Source of the DNA: a virus
Taxonomy: Duplodnaviria; Caudoviricetes
DNA length: 64,000 bases
Virus record (IMG/VR): IMGVR_UViG_3300032281_000616
Span: 128,001-192,000 of that record
Direction: 5' to 3' (one strand)
Shown here: piece after piece, positions 7,867 through 62,979 of the stretch
Position numbering within the stretch: position 1 is the first letter of the stretch
How the letters are laid out: each line of letters starts with the position of its first letter
Position numbers and translations under genes: made by a program
Notes under the pieces: model-generated
The model's input: the letters and a program-made list of their open reading frames with translations, nothing else
The model's database searches: none
What the model was told of the DNA's origin: nothing

Positions 7867-7898
7867 GCATACTCTAGTGTTTCATCACTAGAGTATGC
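7867..7898. repeat. perfect 13-bp inverted repeat containing the promoter box
   Basis: GCATACTCTAGTG-tttcat-CACTAGAGTATGC. Confidence 0.9.
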
Positions 7899-7899
7899 A

Positions 7900-7928
7900 G
7901 GGGCATCGATCATTACAACCGATGCCCC
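7900..7928 (-). terminator. GC-rich hairpin at the end of the minus-strand gene array
   Basis: GGGGCATCG...CGATGCCCC stem. Confidence 0.6.
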
Positions 7929-7939
7929 TTCCTAGTGTT

Positions 7940-8161
7940 TCAACTCCAGAGGAGTTCGTTGAGTTCGAACTGGTCAACCTTGCGCACGTTGCAGGCAGCG
8001 GCGGACCTCCTTTGTTGCGGGCTCCAAGGCTTAGGGCCGAAGGCATCATGGAAAGCCTCCTCTTCACTGTCACCATGCCCTAGTAGGCACTGGCGTTTGA
8101 GATACGCGGAGCGTTTGGTGATGACATAGGCGGCGGTATCAGGCGTTAATGTGGTGGACAT
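7940..8161 (-). CDS. hypothetical early protein
   Basis: ATG 6 nt after TAGAAT of the motif; stop overlaps the next motif. Confidence 0.75.
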   Translation of the reverse strand: MSTTLTPDTAAYVITKRSAYLKRQCLLGHGDSEEEAFHDAFGPKPWSPQQRRSAAACNVRKVDQFELNELLWS

Positions 8162-8198
8162 GATTGAATTCTATTCTAGTGTTTCAAACGGAAAGGGG

Positions 8199-8347
8199 TG
8201 GCCTCGCGGGGAATCGAACCCTCATAATCTGTCCGGGGGTAGCTATTCCCCATCTCCACCTCACGCTTGCAATCGCTGGCGGTTGATTATGTTTTTCCTA
8301 GCCCTCTTCAAGGGCTACCCGCACCGAGCGGAAAAGGCATTTAAGCT
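8199..8347 (-). ncRNA. candidate structured ncRNA ending in a T-loop-like GGTTCGATTCC
   Basis: Lies between two promoter motifs with no useful ORF; TAGCCCT/AGGGCTA hairpin; 3' GGGTTCGATTCCCCGCGAGGCCA. Confidence 0.4.
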
Positions 8348-8373
8348 ACTTACATCCTATCTTAGTGTTTCAT

Positions 8374-8457
8374 CCGCTGGGTGGCTTCGTCACTCTCCTT
8401 GGCAATGACTAGCAAGTGGAGTAAAAAGGAACGGGTGAACTATCGCCACCCAGCGGC
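8374..8457 (-). ncRNA. candidate 84-nt rod-shaped ncRNA
   Basis: Starts at the predicted TSS; termini CCGCTGGGTGGC/GCCACCCAGCGG are a perfect 12-bp stem. Confidence 0.55.
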
Positions 8458-8492
8458 ATCATCATTCTGCTCTAGTGTTTCATCCTCTGAAG

Positions 8493-8569
8493 CACTTTCG
8501 AAAGCTCTTAGAATCGCTTCCAAGCTCTCGAAAGTGCCGCCCCTTGTCCGGGTTAGGGACAAGGGGCGG
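8493..8569 (-). terminator. two tandem strong hairpins downstream of the 166-aa gene
   Basis: 13-bp CCGCCCCTTGTCC/GGACAAGGGGCGG stem (8537-8569) and long CACTTTCGA/TCGAAAGTG stem (8493-8536). Confidence 0.55.
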
Positions 8570-8584
8570 GAAGGGCTTGGAGGG

Positions 8585-9085
8585 TTATTCCGCTGCGGTT
8601 GCGGGGGCGGTTGCAGTCGCCACCATTGCGGCAATCGCATCTTCAGACAATCCAAGGGCCGCGCCATACTTACGAATTTGAGCAACCAACCCATCGATGG
8701 TCGGCGTCTTGCTAACGGTTTCAGAATAGTCGCGAACCTTAATCGCTTCCCATGCCTCCCCGATCAAATCCTTGGTTTCGAAAACAGGGTTGCCGTCCTC
8801 ATCCAAGGCTTGCACCTCAACAGCTTCCCCATCGACTTCGACCGATTCCATCACTGGCACGGTTTTGAAGCGGCGATCCGTTGCGACCTTGTAAAGCACC
8901 TCAAAGCACTCTTTTTCAGACATAGGGATGGGAGGGGCCTTGGCAACGGCAGCGGGGCGGGTGAAGCCCTTGCGGAGTTCAGTGGCCTCATTTTTGAGGT
9001 TTTCTGTGATTCCGAACGTGAATTGAACGGGCTTCTTAGCAGTTGCGGTTGGGGCGGCGATAGGGGTAGTAGTGGTGGTTTGCAT
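8585..9085 (-). CDS. hypothetical early protein, Ala/Thr-rich, GC-rich codons
   Basis: 166-aa ORF behind the motif at 9104. Confidence 0.8.
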   Translation of the reverse strand: MQTTTTTPIAAPTATAKKPVQFTFGITENLKNEATELRKGFTRPAAVAKAPPIPMSEKECFEVLYKVATDRRFKTVPVMESVEVDGEAVEVQALDEDGNPVFETKDLIGEAWEAIKVRDYSETVSKTPTIDGLVAQIRKYGAALGLSEDAIAAMVATATAPATAAE

Positions 9086-9437
9086 AACGTCTATATTCTA
9101 TCTTAGTGTTTTATTCGACTTGCTTCTTTCGAGAGCTTCCCGCATCCTTTCTGGTAGGATGAACCATTTCGTGCTTTCATTCTGTCCTAGTGTTTAATGC
9201 TCTTTGCTTTCGAGGTAGGCATCCAATAGGGCATCGTTCTTTTCGGTGGAGTCGGTGGGAATCATGATGATCATGCCCCTTCATTCTGCTCTAGTGTTTC
9301 AACGACCCACTCACCCGCTTTTTTCATTCCCTTATGTATAGGATGGGAATCGGGGGCGTTTTCTAAATATACGGCGAAACAAATCAGGAGAATTATGGCG
9401 GAAAGATATTTCATCCCCTCTATTCTATCCTAGTGTT

Positions 9438-9605
9438 TTATCGTTTCTTGAAGTCCGAAAAACCAATCATAAGACTCCAAAAGTGAATCCACTTCTTAAT
9501 CTTAGCAATTCTGGTCTTATTCAATACTCTCACAGTCTTATTTACTGGAGTCAAAGTATCATAGTACCTACCAGAGATCTTATCTGTATAGTTGATGGGT
9601 TTCAT
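9438..9605 (-). CDS. small basic hypothetical protein (55 aa)
   Basis: MKPINYTDKISGRYYDTL...DFKKR; bounded by motifs at 9624 and 9431. Confidence 0.6.
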   Translation of the reverse strand: MKPINYTDKISGRYYDTLTPVNKTVRVLNKTRIAKIKKWIHFWSLMIGFSDFKKR

Positions 9606-9945
9606 GGTAAACTAATTCTACCCTAGTGTTTTATAAACAATTTTAGCGGAAGAAATCATGATAATTTTCCGCTTGCGTTCTTTAGGATATGTTTTTTTAT
9701 CAGTATGGTTGAAAGACCCGAGATTGTTGAAAAGGCATCGAACCTTTATTAGTATCATTTCATTTATCTAGTTTGTTACAGTAACTTTCTGCTTGGGAAT
9801 GTTATAGCAGTCTCCCTTCTCTATCTTATCAGGAATCATTATCATGGAGGCAGTTCAGTGAACCTTATCCCCGCTTATAGTAAGAGGATCTTTTAAGACA
9901 ATATTATTTAGTCTGGTGATCGTATTTTTATATATAAGAAAGTGT

Positions 9946-9989
9946 GTCCCCCTCCCGTTCCATCACCACATATTCATCGGGAGGGGGAC
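9946..9989. repeat. 12-bp perfect inverted repeat with 20-nt loop
   Basis: GTCCCCCTCCCG/CGGGAGGGGGAC in a non-coding stretch. Confidence 0.8.
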
Positions 9990-10295
9990 TGTTTACCACC
10001 ACAGTAAATGTTTTATTAGATCATGGCAAGTTTGTCAGATCAATAAAGTTATTAAATTGATAAAGTTATCATGACAAACTCCTATAGAGATTGTATAACT
10101 CTTCTCGATGCCATTCATCGATATACAATTCTCTATCCAATCTTATCCTCAACCATTCTTTCAGTCGCATGTCCTTAGTCTACGCTAGTGTTCTATTGAT
10201 ATATTCCAGTGCAAGTTTTCTACCACACTTTGATCAATCTGTCAAATCAACTTTTTTATTAGATTGATTTAATTGTCAGATCAAAGTAATAATAG

Positions 10296-10523
10296 TTATG
10301 ATTCAAAGGTATCTACGATCATATTGTAGAACTTACAGGCGAATTCCTCATCAGATTTGATACCCGGAAGATTACATATCTTCCATGATTTTTCCTCGAT
10401 AAGATTTTCTATAGTAACAGAACTAGTATTACCTACAATCAAACCGAGATACTTCAGTTCATTCTCAGTAAGTTCAAGGGTAAAAATACGCTCAGATGGA
10501 GGAGTAATATTAGTAATTTTCAT
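10296..10523 (-). CDS. hypothetical protein
   Basis: ORF with promoter motif at exact spacing. Confidence 0.75.
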   Translation of the reverse strand: MKITNITPPSERIFTLELTENELKYLGLIVGNTSSVTIENLIEEKSWKICNLPGIKSDEEFACKFYNMIVDTFES

Positions 10524-10544
10524 AGTGTTATTCTAGGTTAGTGT

Positions 10545-10847
10545 TTATTGCTTAGAACCCCATGCCAAGAGTTCCTGATAGGTTTCAAACTCGTAAATCT
10601 TAACATTACCTTCATCATTGAGCATCTTCATACATTCTTGAAGAGTCTCAGTTCCTTCAGAATACCAGTTATTACCCTCAGTCATAGAGAAAAAGAATTT
10701 GGGTTTGAATGATAGTTTACCCATATCATCAGATGCAATATATCCCGGATAGTTATCAGATGAAATGAATCCATAATACTTCATGGAATTCACCTCTTTA
10801 ATATCTACAACGGACTTACTTTGCTCCTCAAAAATTACAGTCTTCAT
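10545..10847 (-). CDS. hypothetical protein, paralog of 10968..11261
   Basis: Shared EVNS.K.YGF...GFI...EGN.W...VYEF.T..EL..W pattern. Confidence 0.8.
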   Translation of the reverse strand: MKTVIFEEQSKSVVDIKEVNSMKYYGFISSDNYPGYIASDDMGKLSFKPKFFFSMTEGNNWYSEGTETLQECMKMLNDEGNVKIYEFETYQELLAWGSKQ

Positions 10848-10884
10848 ATACGTTTATTCTATTCTAGTGTTCTATAAGAAAAAG

Positions 10885-10946
10885 AAACCCTCTCTGAGTC
10901 ATGATGAAAAACAAACGGCATTTGTTAATATACTCAGAGAGGGTTT
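10885..10946 (-). terminator. 15-bp stem with 32-nt loop followed by a T-rich tail
   Basis: AAACCCTCTCTGAGT/ACTCAGAGAGGGTTT; TTTCTTTTTCTT on minus strand. Confidence 0.65.
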
Positions 10947-10967
10947 TACACCACCATGATGCAAACT

Positions 10968-11261
10968 TTATTCAGCCAACCAAGTAAACAATTCTTTAGA
11001 AGTATCGAATTGATATACTGTGAAGTTTTTATTCAAAAGATTTTCGATTGTACCTTGAAGATTACTTCGTGAATGTGAAGGCCATGAATTTCCTTCAGTC
11101 AATTCTGTAATGGCTTTCATTTGATAATTTCCACCACCATAACTCACTCTTGAAATAAATCCTTTTGAATTTGTATGATTCTGAACAAACCCATAAAATT
11201 TATACGAATTCACTTCTGATACATTTACTGTATCCCGACTTGTATTGATCACTTCTTTCAT
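10968..11261 (-). CDS. hypothetical protein, paralog of 10545..10847
   Basis: See paralog. Confidence 0.8.
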   Translation of the reverse strand: MKEVINTSRDTVNVSEVNSYKFYGFVQNHTNSKGFISRVSYGGGNYQMKAITELTEGNSWPSHSRSNLQGTIENLLNKNFTVYQFDTSKELFTWLAE

Positions 11262-11300
11262 ATATTCTTGTATTCTTTGAATTTCTTTGTTTCGTTGGAT

Positions 11301-11888
11301 TTAGATATTCTCAGCCAACTTAATGAGTTCTTTTACCGTATCCAGAGGAATAGTTTGGCATCCTACCACAACCTTATCCTCATAAACCTTGGCTGTATAC
11401 TCATCGGAGATCTTCAGTTCCTTATATTCTCCGAGTGGGGTGACACTCTCGAATGGTACACATACACCACTATCAGTACAAACTACACAGAACTCATGGG
11501 TTTTAAGATAATCATGAACTAAATCAGATTTATTGCTTGTTGATTCCTTGGATACCAAAACAACATTCTTAACCTTTATATGGGCAAATGAACCATTAAC
11601 ATAGGATACCTTTTTACCAATAAGTTTGGTGGCTGCTTTGAATTGTTTCATATAGTCTGGTTCAGAACTTACCAGTTCAAACTTATCATCATCCCACCAA
11701 GAACGATCATTACCCTTAGAATCGACAATATGGATGTCTCTTCCATTACTACCGATTTCATTGATTGTATATGTTTCACTTACATCATAATCGAATGATC
11801 CATAATGCTTAGGGAGTAGTTTTACTTTGTATCCGATTTTCAAGCCTGCTGGTGTTGTTGTTTTTTCTTTCATTGTGATGATATTCAT
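11301..11888 (-). CDS. hypothetical protein, paralog of 11893..12420
   Basis: Shared C-terminal Y.A.V..D...VGCQ.IP...V.E. Confidence 0.8.
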   Translation of the reverse strand: MNIITMKEKTTTPAGLKIGYKVKLLPKHYGSFDYDVSETYTINEIGSNGRDIHIVDSKGNDRSWWDDDKFELVSSEPDYMKQFKAATKLIGKKVSYVNGSFAHIKVKNVVLVSKESTSNKSDLVHDYLKTHEFCVVCTDSGVCVPFESVTPLGEYKELKISDEYTAKVYEDKVVVGCQTIPLDTVKELIKLAENI

Positions 11889-11892
11889 AGTT

Positions 11893-12420
11893 TTATGACA
11901 ATTTCTTATGTAATTCTACAATTTCTTCTACCTTGGACCAAGGGATGAATTGGCATCCTACTTTAATGAAATCTTTCTCCACAATAGCTTCATAATCTCC
12001 CACATCCTTAACAATGTTTGATACAATAGTTAGTTGGTTTACTGGGATGACTAAATCATTGGTCATTCTGAGGGCTACAGAAAAGCCATTCCTTTTAATA
12101 TCATCAGTGACTAAAGCGGATGATCTATTAGTAGGTTTGGTAAAGATTTCGATACTTTCTGGAGTGTATGTATCAATAAACATAGTAACAATCTTACCAG
12201 ATTGAAGAATGTCATAAGCCTTATTTACTAATTCTTTCATAGTTTCGGGCTTATCAACAACTTCAAATCTAACAGTGAAGAATGATTCATCGGTTCCTTC
12301 TACAAAAAGAAGTTCATCGTCTTCATCATCATAACGATCAAATGTATAAATTTTATCAGCAACCAATGCGAAGTTGGGGTTGATACAACGAATCTTATCA
12401 CCTTTCTTTATATTTTTCAT
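11893..12420 (-). CDS. hypothetical protein, paralog of 11301..11888
   Basis: See paralog; N-terminal IKKGDKIRCI (SH3-like). Confidence 0.8.
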   Translation of the reverse strand: MKNIKKGDKIRCINPNFALVADKIYTFDRYDDEDDELLFVEGTDESFFTVRFEVVDKPETMKELVNKAYDILQSGKIVTMFIDTYTPESIEIFTKPTNRSSALVTDDIKRNGFSVALRMTNDLVIPVNQLTIVSNIVKDVGDYEAIVEKDFIKVGCQFIPWSKVEEIVELHKKLS

Positions 12421-12427
12421 ATGTTGA

Positions 12428-12619
12428 TTAGTATGAGAAGTTTTGTGAGAGGGAAGTAGTCACTCCATTAGTCTTAAAGATAGGAGTTGATCTTGAGCTA
12501 AGGGAACGCTTGATAGAAATGGCACCTTTCTTAGGCTTAGAATATACCATTTGAACCCATGATGTACGAAGCATCTTTTGTGGGGCGCGGAAGTCTGATT
12601 TGTTATTGTTGCTGGACAT
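12428..12619 (-). CDS. small basic hypothetical protein
   Basis: Promoter motif at exact spacing. Confidence 0.65.
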   Translation of the reverse strand: MSSNNNKSDFRAPQKMLRTSWVQMVYSKPKKGAISIKRSLSSRSTPIFKTNGVTTSLSQNFSY

Positions 12620-12647
12620 GCTCTGATTCTAGGTTAGTGTTTGATTA

Positions 12648-12974
12648 TTAAAGATTTGCATCGAATCCATCGCATCCGATAACATTACCCTTATCATCTC
12701 TGATAAGATTACCGGGAGACAATAGATCTTTTCTTGCTGGTGCTGCCATCTTTACCAAGGTTGATACGATATAATAAGTATCATCGACTTGATCCGGTAG
12801 ATCCATGACATCTCCCACTGTATTCTTATAGATAGGAATATTCATGATACTGCAAAGTTCGTGTCTTTGCATATTAACTCTTGGAACCGGATAAGACTTA
12901 TCAGGATCAATCGACATCTTGAAATCTTTTGAGATGATATTGATCGTGTGAGGTGTAAGATTGATGAACTTCAT
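12648..12974 (-). CDS. conserved hypothetical protein (INLTPH family)
   Basis: MKFINLTPH...YYIVS...RKDLLSPG...RD..G.VIGC; start set by the promoter motif. Confidence 0.75.
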   Translation of the reverse strand: MKFINLTPHTINIISKDFKMSIDPDKSYPVPRVNMQRHELCSIMNIPIYKNTVGDVMDLPDQVDDTYYIVSTLVKMAAPARKDLLSPGNLIRDDKGNVIGCDGFDANL

Positions 12975-12999
12975 GTCAGTATTCTGCTTTAGTGTTTCA

Positions 13000-13302
13000 T
13001 CAGAGGATTTTCTTGAGAGCACTGAGGAATCTCTTTCCTGAATTACCAGATTTATTCATAATAAATAAACCAGAATTTAGGGCTGCGATTGCACCAATTC
13101 CGCCACAATCAGTTCCCCAGATACTTCCACCCTTCAAAGGAACCATTGAAAGCAAGTGATAGTATTCCCCATCACACTCCACTAACTTATCCATATCGTT
13201 TGGAGTAAATGACTTATGAATAGATATCACCCTATCATTCTTGATATTGATATTCCATCCATACTTTTCACATTCTGATTTGAAGTCTTGTGGGGTGATC
13301 AT
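13000..13302 (-). CDS. hypothetical protein
   Basis: Promoter motif at exact spacing. Confidence 0.75.
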   Translation of the reverse strand: MITPQDFKSECEKYGWNINIKNDRVISIHKSFTPNDMDKLVECDGEYYHLLSMVPLKGGSIWGTDCGGIGAIAALNSGLFIMNKSGNSGKRFLSALKKIL

Positions 13303-13350
13303 GTTTATATCTTAGGCTAGTGTTTCATGAATACTTAACTCTATTTTTCA

Positions 13351-13509
13351 TTATTCTTGAGAGAATTTATCAATCATCCTACGATACTTTTTCTTTTCCC
13401 TACGCATCGTGCGCTTTTTGGTAGCATTACTACCAACATCGAAACAATCATCGTAATCTTTTTTCCCAGAGTGAATATGAGAACGACTATAATAATTTCG
13501 AACTTGCAT
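13351..13509 (-). CDS. small basic protein (52 aa), not in ORF track
   Basis: MQVRNYYSRSHIHSGKK...RREKKKYRRMIDKFSQE; ATG 6 nt after TAGAAT. Confidence 0.6.
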   Translation of the reverse strand: MQVRNYYSRSHIHSGKKDYDDCFDVGSNATKKRTMRREKKKYRRMIDKFSQE

Positions 13510-13585
13510 GTCAGTATTCTACTTTAGTGTTTCATCTATCCCAACTCAGGGTAGTTTAATGAGATACCCTAGCTCATTGTTTTGA

Positions 13586-15115
13586 TTATTCTTCCCGATT
13601 GCGGCGTGATGGAGCATCTGTAAGATGAATAAGACTTTCCATCGCACGAGTCGCTGCAACATAACGAAGATGTTTTTCTTGCTGTTGCATCCATGGAAGA
13701 ACTGCGTATTTGGATGGAGAAAATTGCGCATCACCCAACCAGTAAACAGTTTTCCATTCAAGACCCTTAGCCTTATGAATAGAACTGAAGGTCACGATAT
13801 TCGGAAGATTCCCATCCTTAGAATCAGTGAACATATCAGCGATAAGTTTCTCCAGAGAATAAAGATCATCCTTTCCGAGAGATTGGACACGTTCAATCAG
13901 AATGATCATGGTATCCAACTTATCTTCCAATTGTTGCATCTTAGCATAAGAAGCTTTCTCGAACTCCTTATTGAAGAATTCATTAAGTTTGATGATGAAG
14001 TCGGAGAGAGTCTTAACCTTTTTCCACTTATTCACCAGTTTGATAAGATCCTTACCAATATCTTTTCCTTCGATACGGCAACCGATACCTTGACGAATAA
14101 GAGCGAAAGCAAGGGCAACATTAGGAGCATTGTTTCGGCAAAGAATCCCAACATTACGATCAAGCTTGATATTCATAGCTTGATCGACAAACTCTTGATA
14201 CTTCATAGAAGTGACAGAACCCTCACAGTTTCCTTCATAGGCCATGATATCAGGAAAGAACTCTTGAGCAGTCTTAATGATATTCTTTCCACAGCGGTAG
14301 CAGATGGAAAGTGGAAGCTCTTCACATTCAAAACGCTCACGAATGAGATTCATTGAATCATTCTCAGCACCAGTGAATCCCATAATTGCTTGTCCTTCAT
14401 CACCAATAAAGATACAACGACCATCTGGTTTGACAAGTTTAGCAGCAAGAAGTTTACGACAAACATTTGTATCTTGAGCTTCATCAACGACAACCCAATC
14501 ATATTGTTGACCCTTGATATCATAGATCAGGGGAAGATACTGCATATCATCAAAATCAATTGAACGAAAATCAAGATTGGAGTCCCTAAGAACTTGCTTG
14601 GCAATTTCAATAACTTCACCAAGATCAGCATCAAAGTCTGTATCGATATCATGATGAGTGATGATTTCCATCCATGCTTGAGTATCATCGATAGAAGTTT
14701 GACCCTTAACACCAAACGCATTTTGTTTAGCGAAACCTACAAGTTTAGTAATAAAGTTGCGAGTATATTGAAGATCTTGACGTTGGCAATACTTTTCAGT
14801 GATCCAATAAACTTTACCATTCTTTGGAACATTATGCCAACCTTTAGCTTTATAGAGCATACCCTTACCCGTTGCATGAAATGTTCCAGAAATAGCATTA
14901 GGAACGCCCATACGAGAAAGTTTCTCTTTAAGTTGCCATGCAGCTTTAGCACCAAAAGCCAACATGATAACATCACCTTTCATGAATTGTGCGCAATGCG
15001 TCACAAGAAAAGTTTTACCGGAACCAGCACGGGCTGGAATGATAAGGTTTCTCTTATTAGGGTTAGGATTACGAACCCAAGATTCGACATCAAGTTGTTG
15101 TTGAGATAGTTGCAT
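13586..15115 (-). CDS. UvrD/Rep-like superfamily 1 DNA helicase
   Basis: ARAGSGKT, VVDEAQD, IGDEGQAIMGFTGA, CYRC, SIHKAKGLEW, YVAATRA. Confidence 0.92.
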   Translation of the reverse strand: MQLSQQQLDVESWVRNPNPNKRNLIIPARAGSGKTFLVTHCAQFMKGDVIMLAFGAKAAWQLKEKLSRMGVPNAISGTFHATGKGMLYKAKGWHNVPKNGKVYWITEKYCQRQDLQYTRNFITKLVGFAKQNAFGVKGQTSIDDTQAWMEIITHHDIDTDFDADLGEVIEIAKQVLRDSNLDFRSIDFDDMQYLPLIYDIKGQQYDWVVVDEAQDTNVCRKLLAAKLVKPDGRCIFIGDEGQAIMGFTGAENDSMNLIRERFECEELPLSICYRCGKNIIKTAQEFFPDIMAYEGNCEGSVTSMKYQEFVDQAMNIKLDRNVGILCRNNAPNVALAFALIRQGIGCRIEGKDIGKDLIKLVNKWKKVKTLSDFIIKLNEFFNKEFEKASYAKMQQLEDKLDTMIILIERVQSLGKDDLYSLEKLIADMFTDSKDGNLPNIVTFSSIHKAKGLEWKTVYWLGDAQFSPSKYAVLPWMQQQEKHLRYVAATRAMESLIHLTDAPSRRNREE

Positions 15116-15164
15116 AAGTGGTGGTTTCTCGTTACGTCCCTATTCTAGGCTAGTGTTTCATCAA

Positions 15165-15365
15165 TTAACCTTCAGTGTCAAACATCTGAACAGTGAAACC
15201 TTCCCCTTCAAAAATTCTATTCTCATAATGAAGATCAAGAGGAATGATTCCATATTCTTCCAACACTTCACCAAATTTATCCTCTTGATCCGAAATAGAA
15301 TCAAGATAATGTAGTTCAGATACCTTATTATTTTCAGTGATAATTACTAGATAGTGTGTAAACAT
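15165..15365 (-). CDS. hypothetical protein
   Basis: Promoter motif at exact spacing. Confidence 0.7.
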   Translation of the reverse strand: MFTHYLVIITENNKVSELHYLDSISDQEDKFGEVLEEYGIIPLDLHYENRIFEGEGFTVQMFDTEG

Positions 15366-15390
15366 GTTAGTATTCTAGGCTAGTGTTTCA

Positions 15391-15666
15391 TCAGTCAACT
15401 ACGGACCAAATTACATCAGTGACAATTTTTCTCTTCTTCATCGGTAGATTCTTCACATTTTCAATGATTTTTTCACAATCATCGTAAGGAATACCGCGCA
15501 AAGCTAGATTGTTTGCTGTGATGGTTCTATTAAAAGTCTTAATCCATTGAGTTTTTTCATTATTCTTAGCAATTAGATAGAATCGTTTATCGTTAGATCT
15601 TTCTTCAGTGTCGGTGTAATAATCCCAAACCAATTCAACATGATAAGTATCTGGTGAGTTGTGCAT
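15391..15666 (-). CDS. hypothetical protein
   Basis: Promoter motif at exact spacing. Confidence 0.7.
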   Translation of the reverse strand: MHNSPDTYHVELVWDYYTDTEERSNDKRFYLIAKNNEKTQWIKTFNRTITANNLALRGIPYDDCEKIIENVKNLPMKKRKIVTDVIWSVVD

Positions 15667-15688
15667 GACCTAATCTTAATCTAGTGTT

Positions 15689-15871
15689 TCATACTGTAAT
15701 ATCCAACTTAGACTTCTTACGATTCATGATGACTTGAAACCATTCATCCAGTTGATCTTTACCAGATTTTCCACCATAACCCTGAAGTTGATTTTGTCGA
15801 ATACTCATCCCCATATTGAGAGCTTTATCAACTAGAAATTTTACTTCTTGTTCTGTGTATGTATTTTCCAT
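15689..15871 (-). CDS. hypothetical protein
   Basis: ORF ending at the next motif. Confidence 0.65.
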   Translation of the reverse strand: MENTYTEQEVKFLVDKALNMGMSIRQNQLQGYGGKSGKDQLDEWFQVIMNRKKSKLDITV

Positions 15872-15893
15872 TGTGGTGATTTATTATTTTGAA

Positions 15894-16006
15894 ATCAAGT
15901 GATAGGACTCGAACCTATAATAATGCCGGTTGTGACGATGCGCTCGGGACAGTGCTATTTTACGCTTATCCTATTACTCACTTACCAGTGTGTCTGCCAC
16001 ACTTAA
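15894..16006 (-). ncRNA. tRNA-like RNA with expanded central region
   Basis: TTAAGTG/CACTTGA acceptor and perfect ATAGG-TTCGAGT-CCTAT T-arm; no canonical anticodon arm. Confidence 0.4.
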
Positions 16007-16080
16007 AATTATCAGAAAATTTGATAGTAACGCTACACCATCATATTCGGGGGTGGATACAGCCAGATTCTTAGACTTAT

Positions 16081-16350
16081 TCACTTCATAGGGACAAGAA
16101 GAGTAATCATTTGCTCATCCCCATCTTCATCCTTAACATAGAGATTGGTTCCATCGAATGCGATATCTCCACAATCCTTCATAAAGACCAGACTGAATGA
16201 ATTATTATCGTCTTCCCAATCAAATTCCAACCACCAATCTTCATCATTAGAATCTTCCCATGATGGATAAACCAGAACATTATCATCGATAACGCAGGCA
16301 GAACAATCTTGAATAAGTTTAAGTGCTTCGGCTTGTGTGATGTTTATCAT
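16081..16350 (-). CDS. acidic hypothetical protein
   Basis: ORF behind the motif at 16369. Confidence 0.7.
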   Translation of the reverse strand: MINITQAEALKLIQDCSACVIDDNVLVYPSWEDSNDEDWWLEFDWEDDNNSFSLVFMKDCGDIAFDGTNLYVKDEDGDEQMITLLVPMK

Positions 16351-16375
16351 AACGTCCTCAGTTTAGGATAGTGTT

Positions 16376-19300
16376 TCAACGATACAAGTAGCGATCAGTA
16401 TCATCAGGAAAATCCGAAATGACACAATTATAAAGTTGTTCATCTAAGAAAACATCCATAATAAGTTCGATCTTATTATTAGACAAATGAGGTTCTTCCA
16501 ACTTTGTCTTGATATATTCAAGAGCATTTTCTCTTGTAAATCTTAGTGTTGAGTGTGCGCCCATATTATTGTGTTCTTGTTTTACCTTTGGTAATCTTCG
16601 GACCACCTTCATTGTATCCGGTCCAAGCATTCTGAGATTTATGAACCTTTAGTTCTTCATCGGGTAATGCTTCCCTGATTTCAAACCATTTATATTGTTT
16701 AAGATTAGATTTTTTCAAAGCATTCATATAGTTTTCACACTTATGCTTTGCATTCGTTTCCAACCTGACCATCTTTTTCTTGGATTTACCAGCAAGTAAT
16801 GTATAAAGTTTCATCTTTCGTATTGAGGAAATTGTTCTTTGAATGCTTTATAATGTGTCCAATAACCTGATCCTTTTGATGGTGGAAGTTCTTTTCCAAT
16901 ATCAAAAGTTATTGCATAGAAGGTTTCATCTTTGAATAAATCAGATGGACAAGTCCAAACTTGGCGCATGATTCCATTCACTTCCATATTACAATCAAAT
17001 TCCCAATGTTTCATATTAGTCTTGTTTGTAATATCTCCTAGCATTAACTTTCTTATTAAATCCTCTCCATCCTCCACCAACTCTTACAAAGTATTTGTAA
17101 TCAGGATAATCTTTAGGATGATCAAGAGACATAATACCATTCTCGGTGGAATGATCGAAATCACGAAGTTTCCAATCTTCTACAAAGAAACCAGAATCAT
17201 TAGGATCAATTTGATAGTCTCGAAGCATGAGAGTATTATGGTTTAGTGTTCAATAACACCGATCAGGATGCCATCCGCGAGGATAACGCTCGATGAGTTT
17301 AATTTCATCAATCAAATAACCGTCTTCTTCTGTATATCTAAACTTAACAACCCCATCAACTTCAACCCTAGCTTCGACAGGAAAATCCTTTCGATCACAT
17401 CCAAAACCTTCATGGATTAAACTTTGATAGACACATTTAGCCGCATACTCAGAATGGTGAGTATCTTCTGATTTATTTTCAGATGATTCACTCCAACCTA
17501 ATCGAATTTCTCTTGGCCATACTAGAATGCTTTTGATCATGTTACTATTGTGGTTTAGTGTTTAATACTTTCCAACTTGCCACATAAGAACATCAAATCC
17601 TGCTAATTGATATTTCAAACGCTTCTTATTAGCTTTATCAATATCCTTAATAAAATGTTTCTTATGAAGCACGGGTTCACCAGTTTTCCAAGACCAAACC
17701 ATAATCTGATACTTACCAATATGTTTGTCTTTATTCATAAGATTCAATTCCTTTCACATGAGATAATTAATTCAGCTTTATGTCCTCTATATGGATCAGA
17801 TGAAAGGTAATCATGAAGTTCGGAAGAATATCCATCCCACATAATACCTATACTTTGTCGATCAATTCTATTCAAGATTTTATCTATAGCTTCTTCCACC
17901 ACACTTTCAGAAACATCTCCACAATACATAGATACTTCGATAGTTATTTTCTTACGCATATTGATTTATTTCATTGTTCAACTTTCACAAATGCAGATTC
18001 CCAATGACCAAATGCACCGAAAGAAGTATCCATAGGAGCCATCCAAGGTTGATTATGTTCAGAGATAAGAACCCAAAGAGGAAAATCTGGTAATTTTTGA
18101 AGGGTGTAAAGACAGCATACGGGTGTATCTTTTTTATAAAGGAATTGATCACCGGACTTCATCGGAGTGTATTGATTGACCGTTTGCATGTCCTAATACT
18201 ATCGTAGTGTTTCATTCATCAAGATCGCAAGCAACTTCAGCAGTTAAAGCCACCAAAAATCTCTCATCAGAATTTAATACTTTCCAATTCTTTTGAATCT
18301 CTTGAGGAACATAATTTCTCCAATCTGATCTCGAATATTGAAAGGTATCATCTGATAGATCGAAATCTTGATAAGATCTACTGAAGTTGTTTTGTAGTGT
18401 TGCTCCAAACATAATCGATATTACTCATTGCTGTCTCAATACCATCCATGGAATAACAATAGTCGATCATCATTTGATCATACTTATCGAGTTCATTGAA
18501 CTTATTCCAATACTCTTCTGTTTTAAGTTCAGCAAGTTCAAAGGATTCGTGGATGTTAATCATACGAACCTTGATCGCATTAAAGAGTGCTAAATTTCTC
18601 ATATAACTTATTTTTTAGGAACATCACGACCTTCCCAGATCTTAGTAAAGTCTCCAAAAGCTTCATCAATAAGAGGATCTACTGTATAATCACAGATAGT
18701 TTCTTCTGGTTGATTTCCGAGAACAATATGGACCCAGAGTGTTTTACCATCAGGATTCTTAACATAAAGATGAGATTCATCAGTAGCTTCGATTTCACCC
18801 ACAGCTTCTTCAGTATTATCCACAAATACTCCACCATCGCCATTATCTACAGAATGTAGAGTCAATCCTTTATTAAGTAGGCACTTAATGATATCTTCAA
18901 TAACAGGAGTCCAGTTGTTTTTCATGTCCTTAGTTTACTCTAGTGTTTCAACGATTGAATAGGTCTTCAACTTCAGGAGAACAATCGATTAGAAGAACTT
19001 TATTTTTCTCTTCATATAATTCAAATGCCCTTTTTATTACGAATTCGTCTGTTTCATAAAAAGAATCAGTATATTCAAAATATATGATTCTTTTATATTT
19101 GTTAAAGAAAGACCAGAAACCCACTCTTTCTTTATAGATGTGAAGGCTACTCTCCCAGCTAACCATTTTAGTTATCTCGTAAAAGTAAACATCATCCTTA
19201 TAGATAACCTTTTTCATGGAAATTTATACGTGTGATTAACCAAAAACCACAAGATTATGGTTATAACAGAGAAAATTTTATCTATTGTGTAAGAGGAGTC

Positions 19301-27602: not shown

Positions 27603-28292
27603 TTACACAGTCAAAGCAAACCCAGTCTTATCAATCTTAGCATGACGCTTACCTTTCAAGGCAACGATGCAACCCTTCGGATCAAGAAACCTAAGATCAT
27701 GATCATCACCACTTACAATGCGCTTACCATTAAATTTCTTAGGTTGTTCACCATTAAAAACGATAGCAACATTTCCCTTACTTCCAAGAATAGCTTGACA
27801 CTTGAGGTCATTATCTTCCTTTCTAGAAAAGGTTAGATGATAATTTTTAGGAAGCTTCTTCTCCAAGAATTCTACCATACGATCAAAATCTGGAGTGTAA
27901 TCATAAAATTGAACATCATCAAACATCTCCATAAGAGTCATGCCGTTATGCTTAATCTTATGCCAAGGTAGATCACTCGTGAGATTCAATCTAAAACAAG
28001 GAGTAAGACCCTTCTTCAAAGACTTCTTGATAGCTGAAGAAATTTCCTTAATAAGTTGTTCCATGAACCCATTCTTATTAGTGAAGAAGTATTTTGTCTT
28101 ATTGATACGGGCTAATTGAACAGATGAATAAGCACCCATTCCAGCCGTATTCAAACACGCAGCACGACAACCAGCACTGGAATTCTTACAGACATTAAAA
28201 CCTGATAATTTTTCAGGAGCAAGATGGATACCAAATGTGAGATATCCAAGATCAAGAGACTTTTTTAATTTTGTGTTTGTGGTGAGAAGCAT
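27603..28292 (-). CDS. GP88-family protein
   Basis: C.NSSAGCRAACL, RLNLTSD, FYDYT, HLTFS, GDDHDLRFLD. Confidence 0.75.
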   Translation of the reverse strand: MLLTTNTKLKKSLDLGYLTFGIHLAPEKLSGFNVCKNSSAGCRAACLNTAGMGAYSSVQLARINKTKYFFTNKNGFMEQLIKEISSAIKKSLKKGLTPCFRLNLTSDLPWHKIKHNGMTLMEMFDDVQFYDYTPDFDRMVEFLEKKLPKNYHLTFSRKEDNDLKCQAILGSKGNVAIVFNGEQPKKFNGKRIVSGDDHDLRFLDPKGCIVALKGKRHAKIDKTGFALTV

Positions 28293-28313
28293 GTCTAAAT
28301 TATACCTTAGTGT

Positions 28314-31845: not shown

Positions 31846-31861
31846 ATCATTATTTAATCTA

Positions 31862-35363: not shown

Positions 35364-35398
35364 AATCTATGTTTAGTATATCTTAGTGTTTTATAATG

Positions 35399-37637: not shown

Positions 37638-37696
37638 ATCAGCAGTGTAGTTTAGTGTTTAATCAAAAAAATTCTTCTTAAGAGATAAATAATAAT

Positions 37697-40597: not shown

Positions 40598-40605
40598 ATT
40601 GTTAT

Positions 40606-46483: not shown

Positions 46484-47604
46484 ACTCAGCATTATGGTTT
46501 AGTGTTTTATCAAGTAACACCACCGTTTTATTATCTACCCAATAATACTCTTGAGCATTTTCGTCAACAAATCTGTTCCATGCTTCTTGTAAATAATCTG
46601 GTGTATTGGGAATTTTTGGGTAATCTTCGCCAATTTCACCGATATTCTCAAAATGCCTTGAAATCATTTCATCTAAATCACAACCATTGATAGTGTAATG
46701 TTTAGTAGATCCCATTACATACTCTGGAAGAGGATAATCATAATCCCAACAATCTCTAAGATCATCTACACCACCATAATAGAAAGTGTCCCCATCAAAG
46801 ACAGGTTGCCAATAATCGGCTTCATCTACCTTTATAGCACTATCATAGATTCTCTTATCCCTAGCCTCACAATAGGCATTCATAGCCTTGGAATTACACA
46901 TTTTAACCTCTTCTTGTGATAGATATTTCTCAAGAACTTGTTTTTGCCAATATTCCATTGTATATTTGGGAACTTTATCAATACCATCTTGTGCAATAAA
47001 AGATGATTGTGTTTCAGGATTGAATGCGATATTTTTATACTTTACCCCATCCTTCAACTCTGGATTAATCCAATTATTAACGACTTTAAGAATCTCTTCC
47101 CATCTCTCTTCAGAGAAGAGTGGTTGAAAATATTCCAGAGGATAATTTGTTAGTTGAATATAGTTCCCGAGTTTATTGTTTTTCATACTTAGCCTTCAAT
47201 TCTTCTAATTTTTTACGTTCTGCTGCTTCTTGTGCAGCCGCTTCTTCTTTATCCCAGATATCTTTCCATTTCTTCCACTCTTTCAACTCTTCGGAATGTT
47301 TTTTCTTATCTTTATTATATTTTCTTAATTCAGATTTATAGTTTGGATTCTCGATATCCTCTTCTGAAAATTCGATCAAATATGCTTCGATAGATGGAAT
47401 ATCTGATGGATAATAACAACACCCATAATCGTGATCTAAAGACAGTTTATATCGTCTACCTTCTTCAAAGATCAATTCGTCTCCATCACTCACTCTAACC
47501 TTAGATAATTCACTATATGCTGGGATAGTTTTATTCGGTTTTTGTGTGAGTAATTTAGGCGGCCAAGTAGCACGAAACCACTTTGGATATTTAGATTTAG
47601 CCAT
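46464..47604 (-). CDS. two hypothetical proteins (46464..47186, 47173..47604)
   Basis: Long abutting ORFs between ligase and kinase. Confidence 0.7.
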
Positions 47605-52042: not shown

Positions 52043-52810
52043 TTAGTAATCTTTGTAGCCATATCTCGCATCTAGAACAATGTCGGAAGCCAAGTCAACA
52101 TCAAATTTGAAATTGATGATAGATTCATCCATGATTTTCTCTAATTTTTTAAATTCTTCATCAACCAAACCAGACAATTCATCCTTTGTAAAGTTTTCTG
52201 GTTTGGTTTTGATTTCCATCAAAAAATCGTGATAATTAGGATCGAAATCTTTCACTTTAACCATATAATCCCCAGAGGTGAAGAATACTTGACCCACTTT
52301 ACATAAACGCAAAATTTGTACAAAATTCTTCGGGCTGTATTCATACTTTTCAACCGCAGCTTTTCGTTTACCACCTAATTGACCAGATCTTTCTCCCGTA
52401 GCTAATCTAATCTCACTGAACACATAACCCTTCAAAGAAGACTTTAGAATATTAGTTTCAATTAGATCATAACGGTTTTCTCTAATATAGTCAAACAGAT
52501 TAGACTTATATGTGAAGGCATCATCTGGTGCAAATAGAATCTCTAATACTTGCGTATTTGATTTTCTCAAAAGCTTTAAATATCGAGTGAGTTCGTAATA
52601 AGTAGAATCAATTTCATTGTCCTGAACGATAGACTCAATTGTATCAAATCCACTGATATACTTTTTATCGGTGGCTATAAATAAACCACGATAATCGATA
52701 TCTGATGATTCATTATTCAGTCCATACAAAGTCGATCCACCGATAAGCTCGACTAATAATTCACCTCCACAATTTACAAAGGCTGGATGTTCTTTAATTG
52801 ATTCATTCAT
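52043..52810 (-). CDS. pol-beta superfamily nucleotidyltransferase (NrdC.11/RlaP-like)
   Basis: GGSTLYGL...SDIDYRG, NTQVLEILF. Confidence 0.8.
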   Translation of the reverse strand: MNESIKEHPAFVNCGGELLVELIGGSTLYGLNNESSDIDYRGLFIATDKKYISGFDTIESIVQDNEIDSTYYELTRYLKLLRKSNTQVLEILFAPDDAFTYKSNLFDYIRENRYDLIETNILKSSLKGYVFSEIRLATGERSGQLGGKRKAAVEKYEYSPKNFVQILRLCKVGQVFFTSGDYMVKVKDFDPNYHDFLMEIKTKPENFTKDELSGLVDEEFKKLEKIMDESIINFKFDVDLASDIVLDARYGYKDY

Positions 52811-52950
52811 GTTCAACATTATGATTTAGTGTTTTATTATTTTGAGTTTCGTTAGAAAATGCTAATCTTTGACATGTTCCTACACCTAAACACAATAACA
52901 AAATCAAAATACCTATACCCAAGAATTCAGCAAAGTTAGAGTTATACCAT

Positions 52951-55857: not shown

Positions 55858-55890
55858 TCAATATCCATCAGCTAGACTAAATAATATTAC

Positions 55891-57963: not shown

Positions 57964-57985
57964 GTCCGTATTATTCATTAGTGTT

Positions 57986-59680: not shown

Positions 59681-59719
59681 AATTTGGTGTATTTGGTGTA
59701 GGATTTACTAAATAATAAC

Positions 59720-60676
59720 ATGGATGAAGTTAGAATAATTGAAATGTATACGCAGGGGAAGGGTTCTCCGACTATAGCTAAAGAATTCGGAACCAATTTT
59801 TATGAGATTTTAAAAGTTTTGAAGCGAAATAAAATCGAGCTAAGAAGTGCGAGAAAAAGTTCTAAAAGGACCATATTCGATGAAAAATTTTTTGAAAGAA
59901 TAGACACCGAAGAAAAGGCTTACTTTCTAGGTTTTATTTTAGCAGATGGGTGTATAAGTGTCAAGCGTAATTATCTGAAAATTGGAATCTCCAGCAAAGA
60001 TATAATAATTTTAAAAGAATTTAATAGGATAATGAAATCGGATGTAAAAATTCACACATACCCACATAAAGGAAGCTTCAGTGGTGAACGATACGAATTA
60101 TCGTCTCTCACCTTTATATCCCCAAAAATAGTATCTGATTTAAACAATCTCGGAATCGGTGAAAGGAAGACATTTACAGTGATTCCTCCTATAATAGATG
60201 AATCATTGGAACATCATTTTTGGAGAGGAGTAATGGATGGGGATGGTCATATTAGTTTATATAATACTAAAAACTTAAAACACGTCCCCAATATTGAATT
60301 CGGTATATGCGGAAACATGTCAACTATGTCATCCCTATCTACATTTTTAACAAAATATGGTATAGATCATAAGATTACACCAGATAAATCAATTTTTAGA
60401 ATTAGACTAACTAATAGGCGAGCATTAAAAATTTTGGATATCTTATATAAGAATTCTACGATTTTTCTTGATAGAAAAAAGGCGAATTATATGATGTATA
60501 AAAATGCTAGACAAGAAGCGGACAAATCTAGTCCTAAAAATCTAGGAATAAAAAAGACAAAATCTGGTAATTATACATCTTCATCATTAATAAGTATACA
60601 TGGCATACAAAAACGCATCGGAACCTTTAAAACCTTTGAAGAAGCTTTAGAAGCGCAAAATAACTTTAGTGTTTAA
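59720..60676 (+). CDS. double-motif LAGLIDADG homing endonuclease
   Basis: YFLGFILADGCI and FWRGVMDGDGHI; C-terminal RIGTFKTFEEA (AP2-like). Confidence 0.88.
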   Translation: MDEVRIIEMYTQGKGSPTIAKEFGTNFYEILKVLKRNKIELRSARKSSKRTIFDEKFFERIDTEEKAYFLGFILADGCISVKRNYLKIGISSKDIIILKEFNRIMKSDVKIHTYPHKGSFSGERYELSSLTFISPKIVSDLNNLGIGERKTFTVIPPIIDESLEHHFWRGVMDGDGHISLYNTKNLKHVPNIEFGICGNMSTMSSLSTFLTKYGIDHKITPDKSIFRIRLTNRRALKILDILYKNSTIFLDRKKANYMMYKNARQEADKSSPKNLGIKKTKSGNYTSSSLISIHGIQKRIGTFKTFEEALEAQNNFSV

Positions 60677-61106
60677 TATATTGCCTTGCCGATTCAAAAA
60701 TAGACTTGATTATAGGGCGGGCAGCACTATTCGCACTATGAACATAATAAGTTGGTAGAGGGTGCTGTAGCCTCTTACAGCGATCACACAACCAATCAGC
60801 GCAATGCGCTCCAGTCTTATACTTAGAACCTCTCCAATTCATCATAGAATACAATTCTACTAGATCTCCTTGAGGTATATCTGTATCACAACAATTAACC
60901 AAATCATTATCAAATGAGACGACATGGGGAATTCCGAACTTTTCAACATACTCCACAAATTCTTCATAAGATCTAACAACATCCCACTTTGAATTGGATA
61001 TACCAGAGTATTGCTGCAAAGTCTTATCCTCTTCAAATATATAACAATGTTCAGGTTCTCGAATGTCATCGAGTAAAATCGCTCTAAATTCTTTTTTCAT
61101 ACACAT
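60666..61106 (-). CDS. cyclic-phosphate processing receiver-domain protein
   Basis: LLDDIREP, VRSYEEF, VSFDNDL, KTG..CA.WL, VHSAN. Confidence 0.75.
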   Translation of the reverse strand: MCMKKEFRAILLDDIREPEHCYIFEEDKTLQQYSGISNSKWDVVRSYEEFVEYVEKFGIPHVVSFDNDLVNCCDTDIPQGDLVELYSMMNWRGSKYKTGAHCADWLCDRCKRLQHPLPTYYVHSANSAARPIIKSIFESARQYIKH

Positions 61107-61854
61107 ATTCTAATTCTTTCCATTTAATTTTGCTGTAAATTTGATTTTTCGTCAATCCCAATTCATCTCCCGCATTTTTAATAGTTTTCCATCTTTTGTT
61201 TGTTTTTGGACAAAAGATGTATCTTATCTCTAATGGGGTATTATGACATTTTTCTAGTGGTGTAAAATTTTCAATATCAAAACTCCAATAATATCCGTGA
61301 GTTGACTTACCACGCCTTCTACAAGTATTACTTATTAATTGAGTGGGTATATTTGTCGCTTCGGATGCTTGTTTGATGGAATCAAACTCATTTAATACTT
61401 TTAGTGTTTTTTTATCTATTTGATAAACTTTTTTATACATAGATTTAAGTATTTTATCCATTGCTGGAACAGATCGTCTCTTCCCGAGATGAGAATCTGA
61501 CATTTTCTTTCTACTCTCATCTGAGACTTTTTTCTTCCAATTGCTTCCAGCTACTCTTAATACATTATATCCAAAATCCCTATCATAAGATTTATAATAA
61601 TCCATCCATTTTTGTTCATGTGTCAATAATTCGTCTAAATTTTCAATTTCTTCAATCGGTAAAAATTCAAAGACCCCCATCCCCCATTTATAAAATGATG
61701 ATTGTAGATATTTACTATCGTGCGTTCCTTTTCGAAGTTTATTCCGATGTTGTTTCCATCGTTTACGCATATTGACAGCACTTCCTATATAATGCTTACC
61801 AGTTTCTTTATTTGTTATCCTATAAATTCCAGATATATTATTATTTATTTTCAT
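61084..61854 (-). CDS. GIY-YIG homing endonuclease (Seg/I-TevI-like) with NUMOD repeats
   Basis: SGIYRITNKETGKHYIGSA; RWKQH; GYN. Confidence 0.9.
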   Translation of the reverse strand: MKINNNISGIYRITNKETGKHYIGSAVNMRKRWKQHRNKLRKGTHDSKYLQSSFYKWGMGVFEFLPIEEIENLDELLTHEQKWMDYYKSYDRDFGYNVLRVAGSNWKKKVSDESRKKMSDSHLGKRRSVPAMDKILKSMYKKVYQIDKKTLKVLNEFDSIKQASEATNIPTQLISNTCRRRGKSTHGYYWSFDIENFTPLEKCHNTPLEIRYIFCPKTNKRWKTIKNAGDELGLTKNQIYSKIKWKELEYVYEKRI

Positions 61855-62944
61855 CTACACTAGTATTTAGTGTAGAATCGAAAATTTTATCGTCTAGTAG
61901 AAGAAACCTCTTTGGCTTATATTGATCCTCTGTAATATTTTCTTCCATAGTTTTTTTCTTCAAATTATCCCATAAAGGACTGGACCAGTATGCATTTAGA
62001 TCACTTACTCTATTTTTATCACCTTTACTCATCTGTTTTCAGTAAATCTTGTTGTTTTATATCTAATAACTCTTGCTCTAATTCATTCTTTACCATTCTT
62101 TCACCCTCTTCTTTATTAAGAACAAAATTAGTAATCACACCAAATTCCGAATGACTCAAAGAATAAACTATTTCATCTGATTCTAATCTAGGAGTCAAAA
62201 TATATCGAAATTTACTATCCTCATCACCCCAATAACTTTCCTTCGAATATATTGTGTTCCCAAATGAATCATAATCCTCAACTGACCAAAATTCGGGTTT
62301 CAGTGATCTAATATCAATATCTAAAACTGGACCATTCTCGGATTCTGTGATAGATACAATACCCATGCTAACCAAATCTTTCATTATTAATGATAATCCT
62401 TTATCTAGACTCCACTCTAATTTAGAATCATCTGATATCTTGTTCATGGAATATAAAACAAAAATAGCACCAATCTCATCTAATGTGAGTTTGGTTTCAG
62501 CTAGTTCTATTGGAAGTGTAAGATCATTCATGAATGATATCCTCCACTTTCTTATCGTATCTCAATAGATATTTCTGAAAAGTTTCGTCATCATCTCCAG
62601 AATTGAAAATGTAATCGAATAACCAATTTTCATTTTCTTCAGAAATACCCAATTCATCCAAAAGACTAAAGTATCTCAAGTCTTGAGTCTCTGTAAGAGC
62701 CTTGACAAAATCTTTTACTTTTTCTACTTCATTTAACATTTTATTCATATTTTTATCCTATATTTTGCATCCACCAAAAGGAAATTTCCTTTTCAAAATC
62801 TTTTTTATTTTTGACCGATCCCGGTCTAACAAAGATATACGTCTCTGCTTGTTCTAAATTAGAATCTGACCAAACTTCAATTACATCATCTTCTTGCATG
62901 ATGAAACTATAGTTTCCCACATTACCCTCATATTTCTCACTCAT
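61841..62944 (-). CDS. four small hypothetical genes (61841..62032, 62025..62531, 62524..62748, 62753..62944)
   Basis: Abutting ORFs. Confidence 0.7.
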
Positions 62945-62979
62945 CTTTACCTATTCATTATAGTTTAGTGTTTTATTTA

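Follow-up and report, generated by a model that had tools for sequence, protein, structure and literature searches.

The window analysed here, 64,000 nt long and corresponding to bases 128001-192000 of the IMG/VR record IMGVR_UViG_3300032281_000616, is part of the complete genome (202,205 bp, 34% GC) of an uncultured freshwater phage and carries a long block of minus-strand genes in which an 8-bp box, AAACACTA, recurs. The exact box is present 62 times in the window, compared with 2.94 ± 1.9 copies expected (maximum 10 in 100 shuffles), and 61 of these copies lie on the minus strand, from 7875-7882 to 62966-62973, in agreement with an original prediction of about 60 minus-strand copies made from the DNA sequence. 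Of the 73 boxes in the whole genome, 67 are on the minus strand, nearly all of these at 135.8-193.1 kb. By its sequence, the phage is far-T4-like, i.e. a distant relative of T4. Its gp23 shares 33% identity with cyanomyovirus gp23, a gp55 homolog is encoded at genome 70313-70774, and other T4-type genes include those for the gp44 clamp loader, a gp46/47-type nuclease, UvsX, a DnaB-like helicase, rIIA, rIIB and a DenV-like protein. No close cultured relatives were found, a megablast search against phage records being empty.

The block contains 113 minus-strand open reading frames (ORFs) of at least 50 aa, 36 of which begin directly at a box promoter, while most of the others are stop/start-coupled to the preceding gene. 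Genes led by a box include rIIA, rIIB and those for an RNA ligase 1-like protein, a Thg1-like tRNA-His guanylyltransferase, a nucleotidyltransferase, a UvrD-like helicase, a YopX-like protein and a GP88-like protein; dozens of ORFans and a small number of ORF-less transcripts also belong to the class. This gene content and the rIIA-rIIB-denV synteny match the pre-replicative region of T4. The block and its principal features are as follows (window coordinates; N6, N7 and the like give the number of nucleotides between a -10-like hexamer and the ATG):

7875-62973, minus strand: box-promoter block with 61 minus-strand copies, extending to genome coordinate ~193,073, just past the window
7833-7840, plus strand: sole plus-strand copy of the box in the window, facing the last minus-strand copy at the block end
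8363-8480, minus strand: two ORF-less box promoters with good hexamers (boxes 8363-8370 and 8473-8480)
15113-15161, minus strand: box promoter of the UvrD-like helicase gene (509 aa), with a 26-nt leader, among the few leadered members
24623-25065, minus strand: gene for a 138-aa ribbon-helix-helix (RHH)-like protein (24623-25039) and its box promoter (box 25055-25062, N6)
28290-28318, minus strand: box promoter (N6) of the gene for the GP88-like protein (PF17338, 229 aa), the most conserved gene of the block
33237-33265, minus strand: box promoter (N6) of the tRNA-His guanylyltransferase-like gene (266 aa)
35361-35394, minus strand: rIIB box promoter (box 35384-35391, TATACT, 11 nt to the ATG at 35363); product matches phrog_609 RIIB, E 5e-52
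37635-37663, minus strand: rIIA box promoter (box 37653-37660, TACACT, N6, ATG at 37637, 621 aa); product matches phrog_612 RIIA, E 9e-47
46481-46510, minus strand: box promoter of the RNA ligase 1-like gene (CATAAT, N7, ATG at 46483; phrog_562)
60667-60674 and 61402-61409, minus strand: box copies lacking a -10 or an ORF, like those at 29894-29901 and 7933-7940

The two ORF-less promoters probably make small non-coding RNAs, and the four copies in the last line are probably inactive or chance occurrences. The rIIA box is kept in the orthologs of four relatives (G001, G002, G003 and G005, see below), and the rIIB promoter also has TTGACA at -35 distance.

From their printed contexts, the copies share the architecture (t)GAT-n-AAACACTA, N3, -10-like hexamer, N6, ATG. 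The full arrangement (box-N3-hexamer-N6-ATG) followed by an ORF of at least 25 aa is found at 38 of the 61 minus-strand copies, close to the figure of about 40 given originally for an ATG lying exactly 6 nt after the hexamer. In another 13 the hexamer-to-ATG spacing is 5 or 7-12 nt, and the remaining 10 deviate further: one has the long, 26-nt leader of the UvrD-like helicase gene, several show a good hexamer without an ORF, and no -10 is present in four. The profile of ATG spacings has a sharp peak at N6, with 41 copies versus 0-4 at other spacings. In 43 of the 61 copies the hexamer conforms to TAnnnT, and in 53 to the looser YAnnnT; TATAAT (10), TAGAAT (9) and TAAACT (6) are the commonest. 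The boxes had been described as intergenic. They are indeed linked to gene starts, but the description needs correcting, as 34 of the 50 ORFs upstream stop inside the motif itself, at stop codons that it supplies (TGA at -28, TAA at -25/-24 and TAR at -17). The promoters thus extend into the ends of the genes before them.

The arrangement recurs in five IMG/VR relatives (34-43% GC, one of them 96% complete), each with 31-57 copies on one strand in the same geometry; nucleotide identity is only ~70%, and this over part of their length. The exact 8-mer is kept at the same place in 45 of 52 orthologous upstream regions, although protein identity ranges from 32 to 93% and the flanking DNA can no longer be aligned. 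Across the six genomes, 179 exact boxes were found in the right geometry versus 18 with one mismatch, of which a control register leads one to expect about 7. The box is thus all-or-none, in contrast to the -10 hexamer, which is degenerate like ordinary sigma70 -10s. The block is hyperplastic, 16 of 39 box-led genes having no ortholog in the relatives.

Pooling 166 N6-type sites from the phage and the five relatives, with the A of the ATG set as +1, gave a consensus with A at -26, T at -25, W at -24, AAACACTA at -23 to -16 and R at -15, followed by T-A-n-A-A-T at -12 to -7 and A at -6. The position of the box is therefore as described in the original prediction, at -23 to -16 and unlike the MotA box of T4 at about -30. 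We found that the -1 column, which was left unconstrained by the search pattern, is a pyrimidine in 165 of the 166 sites (C 90, T 75, A 1, G 0), compared with 62% pyrimidine and 10% C at the same position in promoterless, coupled genes. Bacterial RNA polymerase classically starts at such a dinucleotide, C or T at -1 followed by A at +1, and its presence here is the strongest available sequence evidence for a start on the A of the ATG, which is strongly suggested, as had been proposed. Other initiation signals were not found, and the earlier statement that neither a Shine-Dalgarno sequence nor a -35 is evident was confirmed at these sites and at 39 box-led genes: i) there is no -35, the information at -40 to -27 being at most 0.2 bit and TTGAC occurring in 7 of the 166 sites (at seven box promoters TTGAC is found at the correct -35 distance), ii) there is no TGn extended -10, with T at -15 in 4 of 166, iii) Shine-Dalgarno-like tetramers precede 3 of 39 box-led genes, versus a background of 9%, and iv) there is no upstream stem-loop, the mean minimum free energy of the 48 nt before the boxes being -6.4 kcal/mol versus -5.4 kcal/mol for random windows (12 of 63 upstream windows at or below -10 kcal/mol, versus 9% of random ones). 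These features make it very probable that the boxes mark a class of promoters using a host-type -10, and a leaderless start with +1 on the ATG is likely, to nearly the same degree.

Two further classes of promoters fused to an ATG were identified in the genome. TAAATA-N5-ATG, found 54 times genome-wide versus 20 times with N6 and 1-9 times at other neighbouring spacings, heads structural genes and is in the register of T4 late promoters, with +1 on the A. About 10 canonical promoters of the form TTGAC(T/A)-N13/14-TGn-TAnnnT-N6/7-ATG head the genes for gp44, a helicase, a glycosyltransferase, a probable gp33, a thioredoxin-like protein and others; relatives keep all three elements (-35, TGn and -10) at the orthologous genes, with diverged spacers. 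Examples are listed below.

6954-6990, plus strand: canonical ATG-fused promoter (TTGACT, TGG-TATAAT, N6, ATG at 6988) of a gene assigned to phrog_3704 'ferredoxin'
Genome 25652, 41815, 57565, 62194, 65464, 92768 and 192725: other canonical promoters
31843-31856, minus strand: late-type TAAATA-N5-ATG inside the block, heading a 231-aa gene
40595-40608 and 2108-2121 of the window: further examples of TAAATA-N5-ATG

Since the same hexamer-N6/7-ATG geometry is present in the conserved canonical promoters, the hexamer of the box class is taken to be a true -10, and the distance from hexamer to ATG that it shares with both other classes agrees with a start on the ATG. Altogether, 119 of the 306 ORFs in the genome start directly at one of the three promoter types, and the others have no G-rich upstream signal and mostly overlap or abut the preceding stop codon (a 4-nt overlap was found 37 times). 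It seems that the whole phage is expressed through leaderless first cistrons and stop/start coupling, almost without Shine-Dalgarno sequences. The leaderless design is thus not a peculiarity of the box regulon, as the original prediction had it, but extends to the 54 TAAATA-N5-ATG sites and the canonical sigma70-type promoters. A special role in bypassing a shut-off of canonical initiation, also suggested there, is therefore unsupported. Because a separate canonical class should be read first by the unmodified host polymerase, the box class, previously called early, could instead be middle-like, and it plausibly forms a second, factor-dependent tier.

A reader for the box was sought among the proteins of the phage. 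Six-frame searches of the whole genome with hidden Markov models of MotA and AsiA (PF09114, PF09158 and PF09010) yielded nothing at E <= 1, although very remote analogs could escape such searches. Apart from gp55, no protein with sigma70 region 2 or 4 was found in the genome, and the large annotated ORFs include no RNA polymerase of the T7 or multisubunit type; a search with PF00940 (T7-type RNA polymerase) also gave no match, but neither did the control genomes. As no phage RNA polymerase was found, the host polymerase presumably acts. The unusual phage activator or sigma that the original prediction invoked was therefore not detected, the gp55 homolog excepted.

Several conserved proteins were considered as the reader and rejected. 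The 154-aa 'DNA binding' protein of phrog_624 is DenV-like, its homologs carrying PF03013, a 219-aa protein is a phosphoesterase and a 234-aa protein is a glycosyltransferase. A 114-aa protein encoded under a canonical promoter is probably gp33, with a C-terminal clamp-type tail (PKVISIDDL). Its gene (genome 61810-62154, minus strand) adjoins the DNA polymerase gene, and the protein, whose family is listed as unknown by PHROG, is very conserved (84 clusters at >=50% identity). About 40 other small phage proteins could not be assigned to any family. The 138-aa protein is box-driven and conserved in box-bearing phages. Its AlphaFold2 model has helices at residues 20-33 and 37-50 after an extended segment (pLDDT 74-89 there), and the top VIA matches of residues 10-58 are RHH domains (MazE6, NikR, PutA, AmrZ and Arc), with weak Z scores of 4.0-4.3 and root-mean-square deviations of 2.2-3.4 over 44-52 residues. 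Neither a Pfam match nor a significant match in a Foldseek search of the model against the PDB was obtained. This RHH-like protein is no more than a candidate regulator.

The best explanation of these data is that the boxes mark promoters of a pre-replicative class peculiar to the lineage of this uncultured far-T4-like phage, serving some 40-60 genes. TAnAAT(A) at -12 to -6 would be an ordinary -10 read by the host sigma70-type holoenzyme, and with initiation 7 nt further on, at the A of the ATG, each message would be leaderless. The all-or-none 12-bp element AT-W-AAACACTA-R at -26 to -15 would stand in place of the -35 and TGn, and is most plausibly the binding site of a dedicated factor that the phage supplies, whether by expression from its few canonical promoters or by delivery together with the DNA. 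By recruiting or stabilising the polymerase, such a factor would be a functional analogue of the sigma appropriation of T4 by MotA/AsiA, with its site abutting the -10. The large number of copies may be accounted for as well. Leaderless initiation uses only a 5'-terminal AUG; with Shine-Dalgarno sequences nearly absent, each independently translated gene would therefore need its own promoter and the rest would be coupled, hence about 60 copies.

We assign a probability of about 0.5 to the reading in which this strict, non-palindromic 12-bp element is recognised by a dedicated phage-supplied factor. That it represents a new way of redirecting polymerase in T4-like phages without MotA/AsiA, in which a small factor on a 12-bp spacer element abutting the -10 replaces recognition of both the -35 and the extended -10 by the host sigma and translation is obligately leaderless, with a promoter for every gene, is put forward tentatively. 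Several points weigh against this reading. The searches revealed no MotA domains, AsiA or sigma70 region 4, leaving gp55 as the sole sigma-like protein, and the conserved small proteins that were tested turned out to be DenV-like, a probable gp33, a phosphoesterase and others. The start site is predicted from a sequence signature. The invariance of the box across such different phages would fit a slowly evolving host reader equally well. Finally, the reading presupposes a host that tolerates promoters without a -35 and leaderless messages.

The foremost alternative is that these are immediate-early promoters whose spacer element, AT-W-AAACACTA-R, is recognised by the unmodified host holoenzyme itself, through its sigma or core (region 3, the beta-prime zipper or similar), without help from the phage. 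A box identical in six phages of 34-43% GC is what would be expected if a conserved host protein were the reader; the genes under the box are reminiscent of the early region of T4 (rIIA, rIIB, denV synteny, ORFans), and no phage factor emerged from the searches. However, to our knowledge no sigma70 holoenzyme reads 8-12 specific bp at -26 to -15, the all-or-none conservation is unlike that of sigma-read elements, and the canonical -35/TGn/-10 promoters of the same genome show the normal preference of the host enzyme. Bacterial genomes also speak against it. In a scan of prokaryotes, with one genome for each of 185,579 species, the full motif was repeated only on phage-like contigs in one Flavobacterium sp. 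metagenome-assembled genome (JAYVIK01; contigs C225, C86, C126, C129 and C319, with up to 18 box promoters), and other matches were singletons at about chance level. As the repeated motif was confined to binned phage-like contigs, no sampled bacterium uses this promoter type for its own genes. Recognition by the host enzyme unaided is thus considered unlikely.

Less probable still is that the box serves as an operator, the -10-only promoters firing by themselves until a phage repressor bound at -26 to -15, for example the 138-aa RHH-like protein, shuts the class off at the replication or late switch. A site between -35 and -10 is typical of repressor operators, as exemplified by Arc at P22 Pant, and the conserved RHH-like protein is encoded within the regulon and is itself box-driven. 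On the other hand, at 34% GC the degenerate -10 would be too uninformative to specify promoters, TAnAAT being followed by ATG 19-61 times at every spacing from N0 to N12; moreover, the box lacks dyad symmetry, the match to RHH domains is weak (Z ~4) and nothing links the protein to the box.

We give little credence to the proposal that an unrecognised phage sigma or other polymerase-specificity factor uses the box as its main specificity element, with the start elsewhere, for example giving a leader of 12-14 nt that lacks a Shine-Dalgarno sequence and includes a transcribed TAnAAT. The strict 8-mer does recall T4 late and T7-type promoters, and the centre-to-centre distance of ~11 bp between box and hexamer resembles a bipartite -24/-12 geometry. 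Yet an additional sigma or RNA polymerase was not detected, the composition of the hexamer and its distance to the ATG match those of the canonical -10s of the genome, and the Y at -1 and A at +1 fall exactly at the ATG. A sigma54-like register would place the start past the ATG, and such a reading of the bipartite geometry was discarded for this reason. Lastly, a non-promoter signal in DNA or RNA, such as a recombination point for cassette shuffling like the PeSLs (promoter-early stem-loop cassettes) known in T4-likes (PMC2839356, PMC4122927) or a processing or translation signal in a polycistronic RNA, is hardly credible: the copies do lie at gene boundaries of a hyperplastic block in which 16 of 39 box-led genes lack an ortholog, but boxes were found at 9 of 23 and 6 of 22 borders of indel runs versus a 32% baseline (a crude ORF-level test against a single relative, G001), no stem-loop is associated with them, and an RNA signal would leave the -10 hexamer and the Y-1/A+1 signature unexplained.

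The closest known systems are the middle promoters of T4 (MotA box plus sigma70 -10) and the PmSL cassettes of Vibrio phage nt-1. In these, as predicted here, a phage-specific, non-palindromic upstream box replaces the -35 and the host polymerase uses a host-type -10 at pre-replicative genes, including those of the rIIA/rIIB type, with many copies in plastic regions. The class described here differs from T4 middle promoters in that i) the box is AAACACTA instead of (a/t)3TGCTTtA, ii) it lies at -23 to -16, 3 bp from the -10, whereas the MotA box is centred at -30, 11-13 bp from the -10, iii) no MotA/AsiA homolog was detected, iv) the box is far more strictly conserved, and v) the messages are predicted to be leaderless, unlike T4 middle mRNAs, which have Shine-Dalgarno leaders. 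The PeSLs of T4-type phages (Arbiol 2010, PMC2839356; Comeau 2014, PMC4122927) are likewise highly conserved promoter repeats before small ORFans in hyperplastic T4-like regions, but they consist of -35/-10 sigma70 promoters with a terminator stem-loop and a Shine-Dalgarno sequence, whereas the box class has no -35, stem-loop or Shine-Dalgarno sequence. Late promoters of the T4 family, with TATAAATA at -13 to -6 read by gp55/gp33/gp45, are also short, strictly conserved elements. In this genome, which encodes a gp55 homolog, both classes are fused to the ATG with the predicted +1 on its A; they differ in structure (TAnAAT-N6 plus box versus TAAATA-N5) and in the genes they head, structural for the late class and apparently pre-replicative for the box class. 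The -10-only leaderless promoters of Actinobacteria and Deinococcus, e.g. of mycobacteria (PMC4633059), have TAnnnT 6-7 nt before an ATG that is +1, with no -35 and no Shine-Dalgarno sequence. Unlike the boxes, those promoters have no conserved spacer element, and the phage, in contrast, also possesses canonical -35/TGn promoters, as well as a PEP-CTERM-like gene of a kind typical of Gram-negative lineages.

In the literature searched, no description of the AAACACTA box or of leaderless T4-like promoters was found. How pre-replicative timing is achieved in T4 relatives without MotA/AsiA (cyanophages, RB49 and aquatic lineages) is an acknowledged open question (PMC2984593), for which this lineage is an unusually favourable case: the 8-mer is invariant at ~180 sites, the register is fixed, an AUG start is predicted and two contrasting classes are present in the same genome. 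A phage factor binding the 12-bp element would supply the missing mechanism of the middle mode in MotA-less T4 relatives and, as a phage protein, would define an activator position new to bacterial polymerase, immediately in front of the -10. A box read by the host polymerase would instead be a new basal promoter element. Either way, the phage would provide a natural example of expression almost wholly without Shine-Dalgarno leaders, through leaderless first cistrons and stop/start coupling.

The box is absent from more distant relatives that share the GP88-like protein at 49-55% identity. These phages carry other intergenic repeats, either a ACTAGTGnnCACTAGTA palindrome followed by CA-rich leaders or hairpin repeats, which look like different regulatory repeats of sister lineages. 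The palindrome with CA-rich (AACCAATA-repeat) leaders before the ATG is found in IMG/VR 3300021347_000002 (for example at 7400-10760) and 3300037631_003179, and repeated TCGTAACTC...GAGTTACGA hairpins occur in another of the box-less relatives.

Regarding the host, psbA is absent from the phage genome. The box-bearing contigs in the Flavobacterium assembly are probably a binning artefact of similar GC and give a weak host hint. A Bacteroidetes/Flavobacterium host, as the binning would imply, is disfavoured: the Bacteroidetes-type TAnnTTTG is not enriched in the phage, and the canonical -35/TGn/-10 promoters argue against it, suggesting instead a host with standard sigma70 recognition. A 159-aa protein encoded under a late promoter (window 40163-40642, minus strand) has PEP-CTERM-like features, and the nearest Atlas clusters are from Verrucomicrobiota, Acidobacteriota and Pseudomonadota; this gene is a possible clue to an exosortase-bearing host.

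Some minor features of the block are worth noting. An ORF-less transcript at 8190-8362 (minus strand), which follows the box promoter at 8363-8370, ends in a perfect T-arm of the tmRNA/tRNA type (GGGTTCGATTCCC) and a GCCACC-like tail; it was not called by ARAGORN or Rfam, and known RNA families in the ORF-less cluster were matched only below threshold. At the CATAAT promoters at 46483-46492 and 52810-52819 (minus strand), an ATG overlapping the hexamer opens the longest ORF. The ATG 7 nt past the hexamer is the likelier start, so that automatic annotation would add three spurious codons. Finally, the type of -10 hexamer shifts along the block, from TAGAAT/CAGAAT in the first 8 kb (7875-16400, 40% GC) to TAAACT/TAAAAT in the middle and TATAAT/TATACT further on (16400-63000), which suggests either sub-blocks of different origin or a graded promoter strength.

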